Shown here piece after piece: positions 2,943-19,885 of a stretch of DNA of 23,612 nt (its first letter is position 1; every line of letters starts with the position of its first letter). The notes beneath the pieces are model-generated. The model made no database searches. It was not told where the DNA came from and saw nothing but the letters and a program-made list of their open reading frames with translations. The translations under genes and the position numbers were made by a program. The DNA lies in IMG/VR virus record IMGVR_UViG_2648501338_000019. One strand, 5' to 3'. Source of the DNA: a virus (Duplodnaviria > Heunggongvirae > Uroviricota > Caudoviricetes).

Positions 2943-2967
2943 AGGGACTCTTCGGAGTCCCTTTTTT
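2943..2967 (+). terminator. rho-independent terminator (GGGACTC-TTCG-GAGTCCC + T6); overlaps the stop codon of the convergent minus-strand gene
   Basis: 7-bp perfect stem, UUCG loop, six T residues; sits at the convergence point of plus and minus transcription units. Confidence 0.6.
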
Positions 2968-3208
2968 ATGCAACAATTCGAAGTGTAGGTTTCTTATGTT
3001 GTGTAGGTTTAGTTTCATTTCGCCACTCAGGAAACACCTGATCCATCATAACCGCATTAGTCTCATCAATCAGTTTTAAGGACTTTCTCAACGCCTTATT
3101 ATCAGCTTTAAGAGTTTTAATCTCTGATTCCATCGCTACCATTCTTTCTTTCATTTTGGTAATTTCTAACATCAGATTACCAAGAAATTCTTTGTTTTGA
3201 TTAATCAT
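2966..3208 (-). CDS. hypothetical coiled-coil protein (80 aa)
   Basis: ORF immediately downstream of the 347-aa gene on the minus strand; heptad-like ITKMKERMVAMESEIKTLKADNKALRKSLKL. Confidence 0.5.
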   Translation of the reverse strand: MINQNKEFLGNLMLEITKMKERMVAMESEIKTLKADNKALRKSLKLIDETNAVMMDQVFPEWRNETKPTQHKKPTLRIVA

Positions 3209-3223
3209 AGAATTACCTCTCTA

Positions 3224-4267
3224 TTAAGCTGCGTAGGCGTAGGCGTAGGCGTAGGCGTAGGCGTAGGCGTAGGCGTAGGCGTAGGCGCTGTAGTTGGTGT
3301 CATAGATAGCGTCATGCAGTGCCATCTGTGCTTCGCGGATCTCGTCTTCGTTTACTTCAATCTCTTCTTGTTCTTCTTCGGTATCTTCCCAAGTGGTTTT
3401 GAATTTAGCCATAAAGTTATTGCGCAGGGATTCAAAGTTAGTAACAGGTGCGGATTTTTCTTCAACCGGAACTACTACCGGATCAGCTTCTTTCTGTTCT
3501 TCCTGTCCTACTTTTTCACCGTTACCCCAGCGATAGTTAAGGAGTTCTTCCAGTTCTTCATCAATGGATTTTTCTTCAACTGCTTCAACTTCAACCGCTG
3601 CTACTTCGAAAGTGGTTTCCTGCGCTGCCAGTTCAGCTTTCAGAGATGCGTTTTCAGCTTCCAGTTCAGCAATGCGTGCTTTCAGTGCTTCAACTTCGGA
3701 AGATTCAACCACTGCAACTTCTTCTTTAACTTCTTCAACTACTACCGGAGCAACTTCTTTCTGTGCTTCTTTTTTGCAGAAGAAGGAGGAAGTAACCTGT
3801 AATGCGTGGTTGTAGAAGGAACCGCCTTTAGCGGTGTTAACAGTACCAGAAACATCCTTTACAGTGGATTCAGTAGCAACAGTACGGAAGCGTTTTGCAA
3901 CTTCCTGGGTCTCTACGCCGTATTCGTTACGCTTGCTCTTGTGATGCATTACAGCACGGAAGCCGGAAGCAGTTTTAATAACAGCGAGATAGTAAGTTTC
4001 ATCGGCTTTAACAGCACGAGCGAAGCAATAAACGGATTCACCTTCTACCAGTGTAGGTTTAACGTGACGTTTGTCGAAACGGTTAGTGATCTGCCATTCA
4101 GCACCGTCTTTGATGCCAGCATTCTGACGCATTTCGGTCAGAGTCTTACCGGATACTACTTCAAAGGATTTGTCTTGTTTGCTTGCTTTACCTTCCATAA
4201 CGGTAATGTTCAGTTTGCCGTTGGATTTGATGAATAGGTTGAAGGTGATGCGCTTAGAATTTTTCAT
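3224..4267 (-). CDS. hypothetical protein (347 aa): N-terminal globular domain, acidic linker, leucine-zipper-like coiled coil, acidic region and a C-terminal (Ala-Tyr)9 dipeptide repeat
   Basis: Good SD (AGGAG) 11 nt upstream of the ATG on the minus strand; sensible amino-acid composition, whereas the overlapping plus-strand ORF 3197-3802 is a Phe-rich low-complexity antisense artefact; coiled coil EALKARIAELEAENASLKAELAAQ. Confidence 0.6.
   Translation of the reverse strand: MKNSKRITFNLFIKSNGKLNITVMEGKASKQDKSFEVVSGKTLTEMRQNAGIKDGAEWQITNRFDKRHVKPTLVEGESVYCFARAVKADETYYLAVIKTASGFRAVMHHKSKRNEYGVETQEVAKRFRTVATESTVKDVSGTVNTAKGGSFYNHALQVTSSFFCKKEAQKEVAPVVVEEVKEEVAVVESSEVEALKARIAELEAENASLKAELAAQETTFEVAAVEVEAVEEKSIDEELEELLNYRWGNGEKVGQEEQKEADPVVVPVEEKSAPVTNFESLRNNFMAKFKTTWEDTEEEQEEIEVNEDEIREAQMALHDAIYDTNYSAYAYAYAYAYAYAYAYAYAA
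3231..3284. repeat. perfect hexanucleotide microsatellite (GCGTAG)9, which encodes (Ala-Tyr)9 at the 3' end of the minus-strand gene
   Basis: Nine uninterrupted GCGTAG units read directly from the sequence, followed by a degenerate unit GCGCTG. Confidence 0.95.
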
Positions 4268-4383
4268 TTATAAATACTCCTGAATGCTGTGTTAGTTTTA
4301 ATTGTTCATTTCAAGTCTCCTTTGCTGCAACAAGGGAGGCTTTTTATTTTTAAAGCCATCATATAATTCTCAGTGAAAGTGGA

Positions 4384-4563
4384 TTAACAAACTTGAACGT
4401 TAATCTTTACCTGAATTTCGTATTTCTTCATTAGCTTATAGAATCCGCTTCTATCAATCCCTTCCTTCTTAAAGAAGTTTTCCCCGCCTCGCTCAGTGTC
4501 GCTGTAAAACCGTTTAGCAATATCAACAATCATTTCACGAGTAAATTTAACAGGTCTAGCCAT
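4384..4563 (-). CDS. small HTH DNA-binding protein (59 aa from the ATG at 4563; the ORF track extends it to a GTG at 4578)
   Basis: MARPVKFTREMIVDIAKRFYSD...GIDRSGFYKLMKKYEI has a resolvase/transposase-type HTH signature; SD GAGGAA 9 nt upstream of the ATG at 4563. Confidence 0.5.
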   Translation of the reverse strand: MARPVKFTREMIVDIAKRFYSDTERGGENFFKKEGIDRSGFYKLMKKYEIQVKINVQVC

Positions 4564-4905
4564 AAATCGATTCCTCACATGTGGATTAATAATTCCTTAA
4601 AAAAGAGCTTTTCGCTCTGAACAATTCTATTTATAAAAATGATTTTCAAAAACTCTGTAAAACAACTGTATATCCGATCAGTGGGAGCACGAATTGCTAA
4701 AGAGAAGATTAATAATTAATCAATTCGTACAATATTCGACCGAAAAAGCACTGCATATCTAACCAGTGCTGTATGAATTAACAGTTAGTCAAGGGATTTT
4801 CAGAAGTGAACAATCATTTTTCATGCATTGTATTTATACACGAAAAATCATGCTTATCATCTATATGGGGATTGTTTGGAAAATTTCAACCCCTACCAAG
4901 GATAA

Positions 4906-4936
4906 AAAGTATAAAATAGTTCTTGACACATGTCAA
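4906..4936 (-). promoter_or_regulatory. candidate sigma70 promoter firing leftward (-35 TTGACA, 17-bp spacer, -10 TATACT); the -35 lies inside the inverted repeat TTGACA-CA-TGTCAA
   Basis: Hexamers and spacing read on the minus strand; the inverted repeat places a second TTGACA on the plus strand, which suggests an operator or divergent promoter. Confidence 0.4.
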
Positions 4937-4964
4937 CATTCATGATCTAAGCGAGAAAGGTGTA

Positions 4965-5133
4965 TCAAAATTTTTGTTTGAAAATGGCAAATAATGATTA
5001 TCAACCTTTTAAACCTTATATGGCACGGAGATCTTTTGAAAATTTCTTTTAAATCATGAATTTACATCTATTTTTGGTGGTTTTTTGGTTGAATAATATA
5101 CAAGAATTTTTTGTCAAAATTTTTGATTGAAAA
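4965..5133. repeat. AT-rich region with two copies of the 20-bp direct repeat TCAAAATTTTTG(T/A)TTGAAAA (4965-4984 and 5114-5133) and related A/T tracts
   Basis: Seen directly; lies immediately upstream of the iteron array. Confidence 0.5.
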
Positions 5134-5252
5134 CCTACACTACACACCTACCCTTTAAAGGGATTGGCCTACACTACACTAGCCAGTAAACCTACACTAT
5201 AACACCCTCAAACCTACACTATGAAACCTACACACCTACACTAACCCTACAC
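5134..5252 (+). repeat. iteron-like array: 7 perfect plus 1 variant copy of CCTACAC (4 as the 10-mer AAACCTACAC) in about 120 bp, three of them at 22-bp spacing
   Basis: Copies at 5134, 5169, 5191, 5213, 5227, 5235, 5246, with variant CCTACCC at 5147; counted directly. Confidence 0.8.
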
Positions 5253-5597
5253 TTCAATCACGTAAGTGTATGACCTTGAAAGGTATTATACCCCACAGAC
5301 CATAGAATATAAAATTCGAACTAACGTTCTCCTTTTTGCTCGCTTTCTCTCACTACGTTCAAGAAAGATCTCGCAAAAAGAATACGGCGTAGCCGTGCGC
5401 GTAGCGCCCACCAACACCTTCTAAGACCTGCAAGCAGGATTCGAAAGGGATTGATAGTTCGCTTCGCTCACGTTCACGCCTACGGCGTTCACTCACTTTT
5501 AAAAGGATTTTCTTAGAAAGGGATTTAATACTAGTTACTAACTGATTCTAGTAAACGAACGAAGTGAGTAACAATCAATTTCTAGAAAGGTATTGGT

Positions 5598-5626
5598 ATC
5601 CCTTCGGGATTGCAACCTTCGGTTGC
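5598..5626 (+). other. two adjacent UUCG-loop hairpins (ATCCC-TTCG-GGGAT and GCAACC-TTCG-GTTGC) in non-coding DNA; possible RNA 3' end or processing/stability element
   Basis: Perfect stems seen in sequence; no overlapping ORF; not followed by a clean T-run. Confidence 0.35.
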
Positions 5627-5867
5627 TAAATTGCTTCCTGATTATTATTTCTTCAAAAGAAAGATTCTTATATTCTAAAGATACTTCTTCGTTTTGATGA
5701 TGATTTAATCAAATCTATGAAGGGGGGCTTTAGCCCGACTGAATCCAATCATCTTTCAAGTACAGACCAGTTTTGGACTCTACCAGATCACTCTTTTCAT
5801 AATAACAAGAATTTTCTCTTTATAAATAATATTAGATTGATTCGCTTTCTTTTAGAGGATTTCCACT

Positions 5868-6335
5868 ATGAACCATAAAATGACTACCACTACTCCTTTC
5901 ATCCTGTTAGGTTTTGATGCTGATAGCTTCCACAATGACAAGTTAATGAAGATCTTTGTTGAACGTGGTTACAACATTCTTTTCAACTCTGATGAATCTC
6001 ATTTCTCTAGTGTATGGTATGCGTTTTGCCGTAATAAGAAGCCGACCATTGTTGTTAACGTCTTCACCGATGAAGGCCGCTTAAAGTACCAGAATATTCC
6101 AGCGATCATCGTTAGCGAATACCTTCCTTTCGAAGTCCGTTCCGGTGATGTTGATCTGGGTAGCTTCTTTACTCTTCAAGAACTGGATGAAGCAATGTTT
6201 AACTACGGCAAAGAAACCGCTCAGAAAGCACCAGAACGCGATGAAGAAGACGAAGATGATGATGACTACGCACCAATCGCTTTTTCTTCTCACGGTGGCT
6301 TCTACGGTTACGATGAAGGCTTAGATATGCTGTAA
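5868..6335 (+). CDS. hypothetical protein (155 aa) with a strongly acidic C-terminal segment (ERDEEDEDDDDY)
   Basis: ATG preceded by AGAGGAT SD; no family recognised from sequence. Confidence 0.55.
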   Translation: MNHKMTTTTPFILLGFDADSFHNDKLMKIFVERGYNILFNSDESHFSSVWYAFCRNKKPTIVVNVFTDEGRLKYQNIPAIIVSEYLPFEVRSGDVDLGSFFTLQELDEAMFNYGKETAQKAPERDEEDEDDDDYAPIAFSSHGGFYGYDEGLDML

Positions 6336-8526: not shown

Positions 8527-10431
8527 ATGAAACTGATTTCTAATAAGGCCAAATTAAAAAAGATTCTTAAAAATATCTCTGCGGCAATTCGCCCACCTAA
8601 AACGATGAAACCTAGCGAATGGGTAGAGGCTAATGTAGTTGCAACCGATGGTGTTAAAGCCGGATCTCTAATTAAGTTGCATCCCTTCCAACGTGGAATG
8701 ATGGACGCGATCACCGAAGATAGGCGAAAAATTGTGCTAAAGTGCTCGGCACAGTTGGGTAAAACTCTTGTGCTAAACGGTATTATCTTTCACAGGATCG
8801 CCAGTAACCCTACTAATATCGGTGTTTTGCAAGCGAACGTTCGAGAATTGAACTCATGGATTGCGGGTAAGGTGAAGCCAGTATTAGAGGCAACCCCAGA
8901 ATTAAAGGCGATGATCACCGACAAATCAGATCGCAATGCCGTTAACAACTCATCGATTATTCAGCTTCGTAACGGATCATTCATGTATTTCATGTCGCTG
9001 AACAGTCCATCACACTTGCGCGGTAAGACACTGCCTTTGATTATTCTGGATGAAGTTGATGCGGCTGATGAGTCAGACGAAGGGAACCCGATCCAGCTAG
9101 CGGAACAACGCGCAACCACTTTCGGTGATGATGCAAGGATCGTAATTGCTTCTACTCCAACTTCGCGGGATGGGGCGATAAACCAACAATGGGAACTCTC
9201 GGATAAAAGAAAATACCACGTCGTTTGCCAGCATTGCGGACACAAACACGTAATGGAATGGAGTAGAGTATTCTTTGATTGGCATGTAATCAATGGTAAA
9301 TCACTGCCGAATCCAGACACAGCCGTTTACCGTTGCCCGTCATGTGAAACTGATTGGTCAGAACCAGATCGCCTCCGTGCTGTTGCTCAGGGAGAATGGG
9401 TCGCCACCGAACCAAATGCGGAAGTAATCGGTTTTCATGCTAACCGCCTTATGTCTCCGTTTAGTTCTATCCGTGCGTGTGTGGTGGACTTTGCTGATAG
9501 CTACGCGAATATGTCACTGGCAACGTTCTATAATGTGGTGCTCGGTGAAACCTTCGATGATCTTAACGAAGACCGCACAGCCGACGAACTGGAAACGCTG
9601 AAAACTGACATTAGCTTAGATAATATTCCTGATGATGTTCTGGCTCTGGTAGGTGGAGTTGACCAGCAAAAAGACCGTCTGGAATCTACCTTGCTGGGTA
9701 TCTCTCGTAAGGGGATATGCGTAGTTGATCACCGATCATTCTATGATGTGAACTGCGAACGCCACGAATCGCCAGCATATGACCAGCTTTACAACTTCCT
9801 GAAAGCTAAATTCTATACCCGATCAGGTCAACGAATCCCGATGCTATCTGCTTTCGTGGACTCATCGAACGGACGAGCTACAAACGTGATCTATCGCTTC
9901 TGCACTAGGTGGCAAAACCTATGCGCCATTAAAGGGGCAAGCAATGTTGATGCTCCAATCCTTCCGGTCAAGGACACAAGAACGGGTGGTTTTACTCTTA
10001 AAATTCTGGGCGTAAACAACCTTAAGACGATGATCCGTGAAATGATTAACCGGAACTTGAGAGACAGCGATCCTCATACGGTCTTCCAGATTGGTGACGT
10101 TCCTGATGACTACTGCGAACAATTGTTATCTGAACAGTTGAAACGGCAGGGTAATACCACACGTTGGGTAAAAGTTGGTCAGCAACGAAACGAGGCTCTC
10201 GACTGCCTGGCTTATTCCTATGCTGCTTCTCGCCATGTACTCAATAAAATGTCATGGGAAAAACTCGAAGCCATCAAAGATAGTTTGAACCGCGAACCAG
10301 AAGAACCCGTAGAAGCTCCTAAATCGCAATCTGACGAGCAAATCGAAGAAAATAAGCCAATCACACGACCACAACGTAAAAACATCGCCAGACGCCCAAA
10401 TAGAGGCCGTAGCTGGGTAACATCGTTCTAA
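8527..10431 (+). CDS. terminase large subunit, lambda GpA family
   Basis: 634 aa; Walker A-like KCSAQLGKT, Walker B-like LIILDEVD, and overall length and layout like lambda gpA (N-terminal ATPase, C-terminal nuclease); strong SD. Confidence 0.9.
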   Translation: MKLISNKAKLKKILKNISAAIRPPKTMKPSEWVEANVVATDGVKAGSLIKLHPFQRGMMDAITEDRRKIVLKCSAQLGKTLVLNGIIFHRIASNPTNIGVLQANVRELNSWIAGKVKPVLEATPELKAMITDKSDRNAVNNSSIIQLRNGSFMYFMSLNSPSHLRGKTLPLIILDEVDAADESDEGNPIQLAEQRATTFGDDARIVIASTPTSRDGAINQQWELSDKRKYHVVCQHCGHKHVMEWSRVFFDWHVINGKSLPNPDTAVYRCPSCETDWSEPDRLRAVAQGEWVATEPNAEVIGFHANRLMSPFSSIRACVVDFADSYANMSLATFYNVVLGETFDDLNEDRTADELETLKTDISLDNIPDDVLALVGGVDQQKDRLESTLLGISRKGICVVDHRSFYDVNCERHESPAYDQLYNFLKAKFYTRSGQRIPMLSAFVDSSNGRATNVIYRFCTRWQNLCAIKGASNVDAPILPVKDTRTGGFTLKILGVNNLKTMIREMINRNLRDSDPHTVFQIGDVPDDYCEQLLSEQLKRQGNTTRWVKVGQQRNEALDCLAYSYAASRHVLNKMSWEKLEAIKDSLNREPEEPVEAPKSQSDEQIEENKPITRPQRKNIARRPNRGRSWVTSF

Positions 10432-19300: not shown

Positions 19301-19885
19301 CGTGACCGTGCTGCTGGTCTTATGGTTGGGTGTCCTCAATCCACCAACTCGGCACATAACGTATGGAAAGCGACGCATTGGGGTAAATATCACATTGCAG
19401 CAATGGGTGTGCACGTTCCTGACGGTACTATCGGTAACGCTCTTGTTCGTCTCCATGTTCATGATACTAACTTTGACTTTAACGCTGCTGGTGACTTTAC
19501 CGCAGGTCGTAACGGTTCGTTTAACGATGTTTACATTCGCTCTGACTCCCGTTTGAAGATTAACAAGGAAGAATTACAGGACGGCGCATTAGAGAAAGTA
19601 AACTCACTGAAAGTCTACACCTACGATAAAGTTAAATCTCTTAAAGACCGTAGTGTGATTAAACGCGAAGTAGGTATTATTGCTCAGGATCTGGAAGAAG
19701 TATTGCCGGAAGCAGTAGGTATTCAATCCACCGAAGATCCAGAAAATCCAGAAGCAATCAAGACTATTTCTAACTCTGCTGTCAATGCTTTAATCATCAA
19801 AGCTATGCAGGAAATGGACGCCAAATATAAAGCCCAGATCGAAGCATTACAGAAAGAAATTGCCGAACTGAAAGCAACTAAATAA
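16385..19885 (+). CDS. long fibre protein (1166 aa) with a tandemly duplicated N-terminal rod segment and a C-terminal intramolecular chaperone (peptidase S74-like) domain
   Basis: C-terminus RSDSRLKINKEEL...VYTYDKVK...GIIAQDLEEVLPEAV matches the autoproteolytic chaperone domain of phage fibres and tailspikes; N/T/S-rich beta-type sequence in the middle. Confidence 0.85.
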   Translation: MQSIQFKRTQTAGKKPTPEQLSQGEIALQLADHVIYTKDKNNNVVQISVSPEKHAELNTKVDNNKTSTDRVIASNKQEAANNLASAKAELNQTITSTRDALNASITAGDTAANKRIDALTTTVGNNKTEAANALAAAKTELNQTITSTRDTINATINKNKTDINARVDQTNTNVTNLTNTVSANKSAIETTVANNKRDADTKITNLTGTVNSNHTAINNKVDQNKSSTDAAIAAANQRIDSIEGSADAAYIKKNTNTYHHGYLLTKTANYFDDAGARNLDYFGAFRPNNAEGWGNLILNIPHSGGKAHGRGFEFHYGSSSSQVKTYGFDKDGNKRFSYRMYHEGDKPTPTELGVYSKAEVDQMFIKNVRMTVPSGDATRGYFKIATATIPQNGRMVMLRIFGGNGYNVNSYDQVDFVEIVIRSGNNNPKGVSIAAYRRNALNVHQVFAVNTSGDNYDIYVNYGRYTDNVIVEYGKTDGVTLTVHDVPELTLVKPSVGVTDARVITMFNTENKAGTLMFDNNSQATYDIVSLNNVPDNNKKYMRKFRSRAAETIWHETVQGDVYRLATGSTDQKEVLKIVGSDGLFVDRLHLQGNNAIRMWRPTGRSNYFEYMDQRDGANKRQGWFGFGSTDTNDFQWYSDEGKNFVKLEASGQVSLSTGATKIVYTNGQYVAANSDAFRMIYGNYGAFWRNDGQNVYLLSTAENDKFGGWNGYRPFIYNLGSGNVTLGGDGNEGALVLERASRAARFAGNTYIKGQYLTFDAGAGQSRDYFRLSHWGDSNNARDNVIQLEDSKGAHFTTERTLATGAIKTKFFGDLESAGLIRWGKGTATSSFNIRAWGADARKQVFECADESGWHWYTQRPGGPGTTAIEFAINGTVKPQAIHTGGNITLNGADIEFKRTGNKHLWFRDPNGLELGLMYSDDAGVIRFRGQKQAQTWKLADKMIQLESGTVTGGGNGLIRGEVAGGSWASWRDRAAGLMVGCPQSTNSAHNVWKATHWGKYHIAAMGVHVPDGTIGNALVRLHVHDTNFDFNAAGDFTAGRNGSFNDVYIRSDSRLKINKEELQDGALEKVNSLKVYTYDKVKSLKDRSVIKREVGIIAQDLEEVLPEAVGIQSTEDPENPEAIKTISNSAVNALIIKAMQEMDAKYKAQIEALQKEIAELKATK

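Follow-up and report, generated by a model that had tools for sequence, protein, structure and literature searches.

Introduction

The replication origin of lambdoid phages consists of repeats that are bound by the type-specific N-terminal half of the O protein, the C-terminal half of which is common to the types. This origin adjoins AT-rich DNA, and its helicase and primase are supplied by the host; early transcription in its vicinity activates it. Here, we analyzed a window of 23,612 nucleotides from a virus of the class Caudoviricetes (IMG/VR record IMGVR_UViG_2648501338_000019); "the window" refers to this whole stretch of DNA. The window contains an array of CCTACAC direct repeats and a cassette of three genes for a 59-aa, a 347-aa, and an 80-aa protein. 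Similar to the lambdoid origin and its O protein, the N-terminal domain of the 347-aa protein co-varies with the repeats. Unlike the repeats of the present cassette, the lambda iterons are inverted-repeat sites inside the O gene. Furthermore, the present prophage has no P-like helicase loader, and its mini-hairpin cluster has no counterpart in lambda.

The locus also resembles oriV of the IncQ plasmid RSF1010, which combines an iteron block, easily melted DNA, and two single-strand initiation hairpins on opposite strands. The RSF1010 ssiA contains a CCGAAGG mini-hairpin (PMC13037366), and the same heptamer is found twice on the − strand of the window, at 5598–5626. However, RSF1010 encodes RepC, the RepA helicase, and the RepB' primase, none of which is present here. 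The two loci share no sequence similarity, and priming at the present locus is putative. The origins of SaPI/PICI elements provide another parallel, as their iteron sets flank an AT-rich spacer, which is also the layout of the array types C, D, and F described below, and their matched origin and initiator specificities are exchanged as a module between related elements. In SaPI, however, Rep is a helicase with a primase partner, and the host and the element type differ as well.

In phage T4, oriE comprises a cluster of short direct repeats near an early promoter with divergent transcription, for which a replication role is suspected but unproven (PMC3016281). A cassette homologous to the present one lies in a T4-like phage, approximately 2.6 kb from the syntenic position of oriE. 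Compared by size and position, the T4 genes repEA and repEB differ from the cassette genes: in the T4 annotation they are antisense ORFs of 50 and 45 aa in gene 5, far smaller than the cassette proteins. Finally, plasmid centromeres such as R1 parC/ParR and pBtoxis tubC/TubR also consist of phased direct repeats upstream of the operon of their binder and serve at the same time as an autoregulatory operator. In contrast, the present element integrates, has no partition NTPase, and belongs with a family of binders of 313–371 aa for which no fold match was found.

Results

Prophage context of the locus

The window is the left part of an uncharacterized E. coli prophage of approximately 35 kb inserted in hicB. 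An intact relative in FDAARGOS_946 is a prophage of about 35 kb in hicB, with a large serine recombinase at its far end. The segment 4300–5900 is 100% identical to E. coli C325, and related DNA was found in 58 of 5426 complete E. coli genomes (about 1%).

The left end of the window contains a hicB' remnant, followed by an LprI-like gene and by a 184-aa gene with DNA in common with RB49-type phages. Then follow the three leftward cassette genes (80 aa, 347 aa, and 59 aa) and a gene-free gap of 1.3 kb (4564–5867) that holds the array. On the right of the gap, the rightward 155-aa, 50-aa, and Rha genes are followed by two leftward genes. Farther right are the genes for a lambda gpA-type large terminase (TerL), a portal, a protease-capsid fusion, and tail proteins. 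No replication protein, helicase, or primase was recognizable in the 35 kb prophage, and neither was a CI-type or other canonical repressor. A ParA-, ParM-, or TubZ-type NTPase was neither annotated nor detected in it. In the window, no tRNA was found and no Rfam family reached its gathering threshold.

The acidic tail of the 155-aa protein (5868–6335, encoded 3' of the gap), DDDDYAPIAF...GFYGYDEGLDML, recalls the C-terminal tips of SSB. The protein matched no family and might be a replication partner. In addition, a T4 late-promoter consensus, TATAAATA, is present at 5821–5828, 40 bp 5' of the 155-aa gene, in a region common to all array types.

The CCTACAC repeat array

The array consists of eight units, all on the + strand (Table 1). 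Perfect CCTACAC units start at 5134, 5168, 5191, 5213, 5227, 5235, and 5246, and a variant with one mismatch, CCTACCC, starts at 5147. Both strands of the 23.6 kb window together contain 11 copies of CCTACAC compared to 1.34 expected, and this number was reached in 0 of 100 shuffles of the window. The units at 5191, 5213, and 5235 are separated by exact steps of 22 bp, and TRF reported a 22-bp period at 5188–5243. The eight units are helically phased with a Rayleigh R of 0.83 at a period of 11.2, which was matched by 9 of 2000 random placements. A palindrome, CCCTTTAAAGGG, lies inside the array at 5151–5162. Thus, the unit count, the exact 22-bp spacing of three units, and the palindrome, all of which had been described in the initial annotation, were found as they had been reported.

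Table 1. Positions of the cassette genes, the repeat array, and the associated sequence elements in the window.
Feature	Position	Strand	Remarks
80-aa coiled-coil protein (up)	2966–3208	−	ends PTLRIVA; part of type-A-specific block 2970–4267
Two reverse-orientation copies, AAACCTACACT and AAACCTACACA	2982–2992, 3000–3010	−	3' end of 80-aa gene, coding KPTQHKKPTL
347-aa protein (big), inferred iteron binder, candidate initiator	3224–4267	−	beta-rich N-terminal domain of ~170 aa
Extra 11-mer AAACCTACACT	4050–4060	−	inside 347-aa gene; kept in all type-A loci
59-aa protein MARPVKFTRE... (s60)	4384–4563	−	HTH-like by eye, without family match; first cassette gene
Sigma-70 promoter-like site TTGACA-17-TATACT	4908–4936	−	11/12 consensus; reads leftward into 59-aa, 347-aa, and 80-aa genes
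AT-rich block with two 20-bp direct repeats (4965–4984, 5114–5133)	4964–5133		left of array; each repeat holds palindrome TCAAAATTTTTG(A/T)
Type-A-specific cassette, array and first part of hairpin region	5128–5492		from pairwise BLAST breakpoints
CCTACAC array, 7 perfect and 1 variant	5134–5252	+	extended consensus aAACCTACACta; helically phased
Inverted repeat TACACTT-N9-AAGTGTA	5248–5270		last iteron is one arm; kept in L012 and Salmonella
Two abutting GNA-triloop mini-hairpins, ACGGC-GTA-GCCGT and GCGC-GTA-GCGC	5384–5407	+	each with heptamer GCGTAGC
GNA-triloop mini-hairpin ACGCC-GTA-GGCGT	5476–5488	−	sequence as read on − strand
Two GNA-triloop mini-hairpins, ATCCC-GAA-GGGAT and GCAACC-GAA-GGTTGC	5598–5626	−	both with CCGAAGG

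Within the type-A genes, the extended iteron AAACCTACAC(T/A) is found three more times, in reverse orientation, and codes there for KPTL or KPTQ. All three are kept in all type-A loci, and chance would give approximately 0.01 perfect 11-mers by a rough estimate of 4^-11 per position. These copies could be secondary sites for looping, handcuffing, or a roadblock, or else a coincidence.

A second + strand motif, (A/T)GAAAGG(G/T)ATT, is present in 8 copies at 4793–5613 (e.g., at 5160, 5282, 5447, 5520, and 5589). Each gap contains 6–8 copies in the type-A loci and 2–5 copies in the other types. The shorter GGGATT has 15 copies in the window, of which 6 fall in the gap. The recurrence of this motif suggests a putative second binding protein common to all types.

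Co-variation of array type and the 347-aa protein

The homologous gap was read in 45 loci: the window itself, 15 further E. coli genomes, and those 29 IMG/VR contigs of prophages that were usable. Every locus contains a same-strand direct-repeat array at the equal position, and each array is built from one of four unrelated units. These units are CCTACAC (type A, 17 loci), TTTTTGCCCCTGAAA (type B, 23 loci), TCCCCG(T/C) (type C, 4 loci), and GATGTACAAG (type D, 1 locus). The homologs of the 347-aa protein were clustered on their first 170 residues, and the four clusters obtained coincided with the array type in 45 of 45 loci. The N-terminal domain is 87–98% identical within a cluster and gives no BLAST match between clusters. 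The other genes assorted independently of the array type. These included the 59-aa gene, which lies between the 347-aa gene and the array, and the genes for the ~150-aa protein, Rha, the 76-aa protein, and the two TerL alleles.

In pairwise BLAST, homology to type B ends at 5127 and restarts at 5493, and homology to type C ends at 5131 and restarts at 5585. Homology between the types spans 4268–5127 and is lost again over 2970–4267, which forms a second type-specific block. That the two separated blocks are kept together across a freely recombining spacer points to a link between them that is functional and not merely physical. The limits of 5134–5252 originally given for the element are too small; the functional unit extends to approximately 5492 and includes the genes at 2966–4267. 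In one type-B locus, a different C-terminal domain is joined to the same N-terminal domain, which indicates that the specificity resides in the N-terminal domain.

Two further pairings were found. Type E, from one further locus (L052), combines the unit (A/C)CCCTGCACTAA with a 46%-identical protein. Type F, from Proteus, combines 15 copies of the unit (A/C)ATCCCTAG with its own protein type, and its array includes blocks in which the spacing is exactly 11 bp. A single-strand orientation and a phasing of 10.2–11.2 bp are true of all arrays of types A–F. At least three phased direct repeats of the same orientation, as in iteron origins, are present in the window, in types B–F, and in the array of the T4-like phage.

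The Salmonella ortholog, approximately 78% identical to type A by eye, retains CCTACAC. Compared to E. coli type A, 54 of 56 positions are identical within the units (96%) and 55 of 85 between them (65%). The proposal of a protein-binding array is strongly supported, as the units are far better conserved than the spacers in Salmonella and the 45/45 co-variation points to a cis-encoded protein whose specificity matches the repeats. By this comparison of sequences, it appears close to settled that the array is the binding site of the 347-aa protein family. The initial annotation had seen no recognizable initiator next to the array. This holds by homology, but the co-variation marks the adjacent 347-aa protein as the probable cognate binder.

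Cassette genes and proteins

In the 347-aa protein, a beta-rich N-terminal domain is followed by a coiled coil, then by an acidic region, and finally by a tail that ends in (YA)nA. It matched no Pfam family, including Phage_rep_O, no NTPase or helicase domain, and no HTH family. Homology to the initiators Rep_3/RepA, lambda O, P4 alpha, and Pri-Rep was not found. An HUH rolling-circle nuclease was rejected because the protein has only a single conserved His and no HUH motif. Among 1.84 billion representatives, the N-terminal domain gave 7 matches, 3 of which were informative, and the variant in the T4-like phage is a singleton. No match was obtained among the GTDB species representatives. Likewise, none of the plasmids and GenBank phages carries any of the six types, and no GenBank phage matched any of the protein types.

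The counterpart of the 80-aa protein in types C and D is 333–363 aa long. It has a beta-rich N-terminal region similar to that of the 347-aa protein and a coiled coil, and it ends in PTLRLVA. The C-termini of the cassette proteins were -YAA, -LAA, -RAA, -KAA, -LVA, -IVA, and -NVA (genes at 3224–4267 and 2966–3208 and homologs in L008, L020, L052, and L059). They resemble ssrA-type ClpXP degradation tags, so the cassette proteins may be unstable.

The (YA)n tail of the 347-aa protein is encoded by a perfect hexanucleotide tandem repeat, (GCGTAG)x9.5, at 3231–3287. The length of this repeat differs among strains, giving proteins of 322–347 aa. On the + strand it consists of overlapping GCGTAGC heptamers, as found in the mini-hairpins, and on the − strand its unit is CCTACGC, one mismatch from the iteron CCTACAC.

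AT-rich flank and promoter elements

An AT-rich block with two 20-bp repeats upstream of the array had been noted initially, and both features were confirmed. The two repeats are identical at 19 of 20 positions, and the AT content is 68–82% across 4964–5123 in 40-bp windows. The block belongs to the conserved, freely assorting flank (4268–5127), between the promoter and the array. AT-rich DNA beside the array is present in the window and occurs as spacers in types C, D, and F, where iteron blocks flank spacers of 67–83% AT that carry TGATTTT. It is absent from L012-type and type-E loci. The initial description needs correcting in that the block is part of a separate flank, which assorts freely and is not present in some type-A loci (L012).

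The −35 hexamer of the leftward promoter lies within the palindrome TTGACACATGTCAA (4923–4936). Identical promoter hexamers are present in L012, at 35 bp from the first iteron. The palindrome TTGACACATGTCAA and the palindromes TCAAAATTTTTG(A/T) of the two 20-bp repeats (4965–4977 and 5114–5126) resemble operators of a different regulator. In the stretch that separates the leftward promoter from the 59-aa gene, a terminator-like hairpin with a T-run is present on the − strand at 4604–4618; it is kept in L012. This hairpin implies a leader or small RNA of approximately 300 nt, or else regulated read-through. A − strand TTTATA-17-TATAAT site at 5313–5285 is lost in L012. The rightward promoter is poorly defined.

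DnaA boxes were not enriched, with one 8-of-9 box per gap compared to 0.5 expected, and the single DnaA-like box sits at the ribosome-binding region of the 59-aa gene, away from the array. DnaA dependence therefore has no support. A CsrA-type sponge RNA was rejected, as the type-A units have no GGA on either strand and no promoter consistently reads into the array.

GNA mini-hairpin cluster

The type-specific block continues for at least 240 bp past the array, and as single-stranded DNA it is strongly structured (fold z-score −4.75). The window contains six GC-closed GNA/TNC triloop hairpins, five of which fall within 5384–5626, where shuffles give 0.03. Among 87 triloop hairpins in 17 gaps, 80 were of the GNA type. 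Taken as single-strand initiation signals, the five GNA hairpins of this cluster would form one set per strand, two on the + strand and then three on the − strand.

The order of two hairpins on one strand and then others on the opposite strand is repeated in types A and B and in Salmonella type A, although the stem sequences differ. In type E, all but the last hairpin follow this order of + then −. The T4-like cassette, read flipped, has one hairpin per strand in the same + then − order. The middle base of the loop is variable (GTA or GAA), and the changes in the stems are compensatory. The hairpins at 5598–5626 are in the region common to all E. coli types, and the Salmonella stems differ from them by compensatory changes. 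Mini-hairpins with GCGNAGC and CCGAAGG are extraordinarily stable and are known at the G4 complementary-strand origin, RSF1010 ssiA, and the N4 virion-polymerase promoters (PMC13037366).

Discussion

The best reading of the locus appears to be an iteron replication origin with its own initiator, the 347-aa protein, and with priming hairpins, and we regard this reading as somewhat probable. It was ranked first on the basis of the phased one-strand iterons with a matched binder, whose N-terminal domain is variable and whose remaining part is largely shared, and of the AT-rich DNA or spacers together with the opposed-strand mini-hairpins. Furthermore, the operon shows features of early-type expression, the site lies between divergent transcription units, and the phage has no other replication candidate. 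On these grounds, the origin layout suggested in the initial annotation gives the best fit. However, the fit is circumstantial, the binder has no likeness to a known initiator, and DnaA boxes are not enriched. Several further points were counted against an origin. The phage has no recognizable helicase, loader, or primase, the module is found on no autonomous replicon, and the array adjoins the promoter in several loci. The cassette is also found in a T4-like phage, although T4 oriE itself has iterons.

If the locus is an origin, infection or induction would lead to expression of the 59-aa, 347-aa, and 80-aa genes from the leftward promoter. The 347-aa protein would bind the phased same-strand iterons through its N-terminal domain, and its coiled coil would join the bound copies, by which the DNA would be bent or wrapped on one face. 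Adjacent, easily melted DNA would then open; in the window this would be the AT-rich block, and in types C, D, and F the spacers of high AT content within the array. Divergent transcription units lie on both sides, and the negative supercoiling that they generate may aid this opening. The mini-hairpins would be extruded, two on the + strand (5384–5407) and three on the − strand (5476–5626), and could act as single-strand initiation signals for the host primase, one set per strand, like G4 oric or RSF1010 ssiA/ssiB.

Alternatively, the 347-aa protein may control its own leftward promoter, and perhaps the rightward operon, with the array as an autoregulatory operator or as part of a type-specific switch or immunity-like module. 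We consider this unlikely, and equally so that the array types are regulatory and not replication specificities. Nevertheless, it remains a serious rival, since the protein matches no known family, no helicase or primase is present, and the cassette is found in a T4-like phage. The array starts approximately 35 bp upstream of the promoter −35 in L012, in type E, and in the T4-like cassette, and extra AAACCTACACT sites lie inside the operon. The tails -AA, -LVA, and -IVA suggest unstable regulators, a canonical repressor is not recognizable in the prophage, and heteroimmune repressor-operator modules likewise switch type with a conserved partner domain. However, the array of the window is at least 197 bp from the −35, and in no locus does an array overlap the promoter core (−35/−10). 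A promoter with 11/12 consensus should need no activator, and it would be unusual for an operator to have 7 to 16 repeats on one strand that are interrupted by AT-rich spacers. Compared to CI/Cro-type immunity, the repeats are direct and not inverted, and the protein matches no HTH family. Furthermore, an operator accounts neither for the AT-rich spacers nor for the type-specific, structurally conserved mini-hairpin cluster, and it is not obvious what an immunity module would do in a T4-like phage, which is lytic. The proximity of array and promoter does not discriminate between the origin and the operator, because iteron replicons also autoregulate via their iterons.

The one-face phasing of direct repeats upstream of the binder's operon, the long coiled coil of the binder, and the exact 11-bp spacing of the type F blocks are also consistent with a centromere-like or scaffold site, where a coiled-coil protein would coat the phased repeats and form a higher-order nucleoprotein complex for partition, genome positioning, or protection, like ParR-parC and TubR-tubC. 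This is very unlikely, as the prophage has no partition NTPase of the types given above, and the hairpin cluster and the AT-rich spacers are unexplained by it. Moreover, the phage integrates via a serine recombinase, so a partition system is unneeded. Even less probable is a packaging site (cosB or pac-like), with the 347-aa protein as a small-terminase-like factor and the GC-rich hairpin segment as a gpA-type cleavage site. A TerL of the gpA type implies cos packaging, and no small-terminase gene adjoins TerL; a weak terS-like match (phrog_57) lies 6 kb off, at 1701–2255. The gap is upstream of the structural genes, and the protein resembles small terminases in its make-up of DNA-binding domain, coiled coil, and tail. 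The main ground for rejecting a packaging site is that TerL assorts independently of the array and hairpin type. TerL (8527–10431) has two alleles, approximately 55% identical mutually, in otherwise similar prophages; both alleles are found with array types A, B, and C, and near-identical TerL is paired with arrays and GC-rich hairpin sequences that differ between loci. Nor does the C-terminal variant of the 347-aa protein track TerL, and an early-type promoter drives transcription of the 347-aa gene away from the structural operon. Unlike a lambda-type cos, the gap is separated from TerL by 2.7 kb and five genes, and its site specificity is independent of TerL. Finally, the cassette also lies between genes 3 and 2 of a T4-like phage, and T4-like phages package by headful.

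Spread of the cassette between temperate and T4-like phages

The T4-like phage has a genome of 169 kb and encodes a 204-aa relative of the 347-aa protein. The order of its cassette is the same: hairpins are followed by a AGCGATTA array and a promoter, and then by the genes for three proteins, namely a homolog (64 aa) of the 59-aa protein, the 204-aa relative itself, and a protein of 80 aa. The presence of the same cassette in this phage indicates that the cassette is mobile between very different phages.

Returning to the reading as an origin, we tentatively propose a self-contained mobile origin cassette, which is possible but rather doubtful. An undescribed origin-binding family with at least six DNA specificities would use only the host helicase and primase. 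It would move between lytic T4-like phages and the temperate siphophages that infect Escherichia, Salmonella, and Proteus. In the T4-like phages it would supply an initiator-dependent origin, as has long been suspected, though never demonstrated, for the oriE iterons of T4. With the same reserve, the parts of this cassette may be the GNA mini-hairpins, the phased array, the early promoter, the 59–64 aa HTH-like protein, the beta-rich coiled-coil binder, and the small coiled-coil protein.

Iteron origins are already known; new here would be the unrelated binder family, its six specificities, and the priming-type mini-hairpins. If the locus is an origin, the reliance on host enzymes and the mobility between temperate and T4-like phages would also be new. 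Such an origin would represent a new initiator family and a design without a phage helicase or primase, based on iterons and opposed GNA mini-hairpins. The six natural protein-DNA specificity pairs on one scaffold could be used for reprogramming of DNA recognition and for orthogonal replicons or binders. The cassette is also a tractable relative for the question of the iteron role in T4-type phages. Even if its function is regulatory, the co-variation gives an orphan protein family a DNA target.

DNA that is 80–88% identical to RB49-type (Krischvirus) T4-like phages was found at approximately 525–2700, at 5638–5721, and at approximately 19700–19800. These stretches cover ORFan genes, a PeSL-like early-promoter element (5638–5721, intergenic in the RB49-type phages), and the distal tail-fibre/adhesin region, and they point to gene flow between the temperate siphophage lineage and lytic T4-like phages. 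In Proteus mirabilis (L059, 11016–11447), the related prophage also adjoins a HicB-like gene, which suggests that the target of the serine recombinase in hicB may be conserved across genera.
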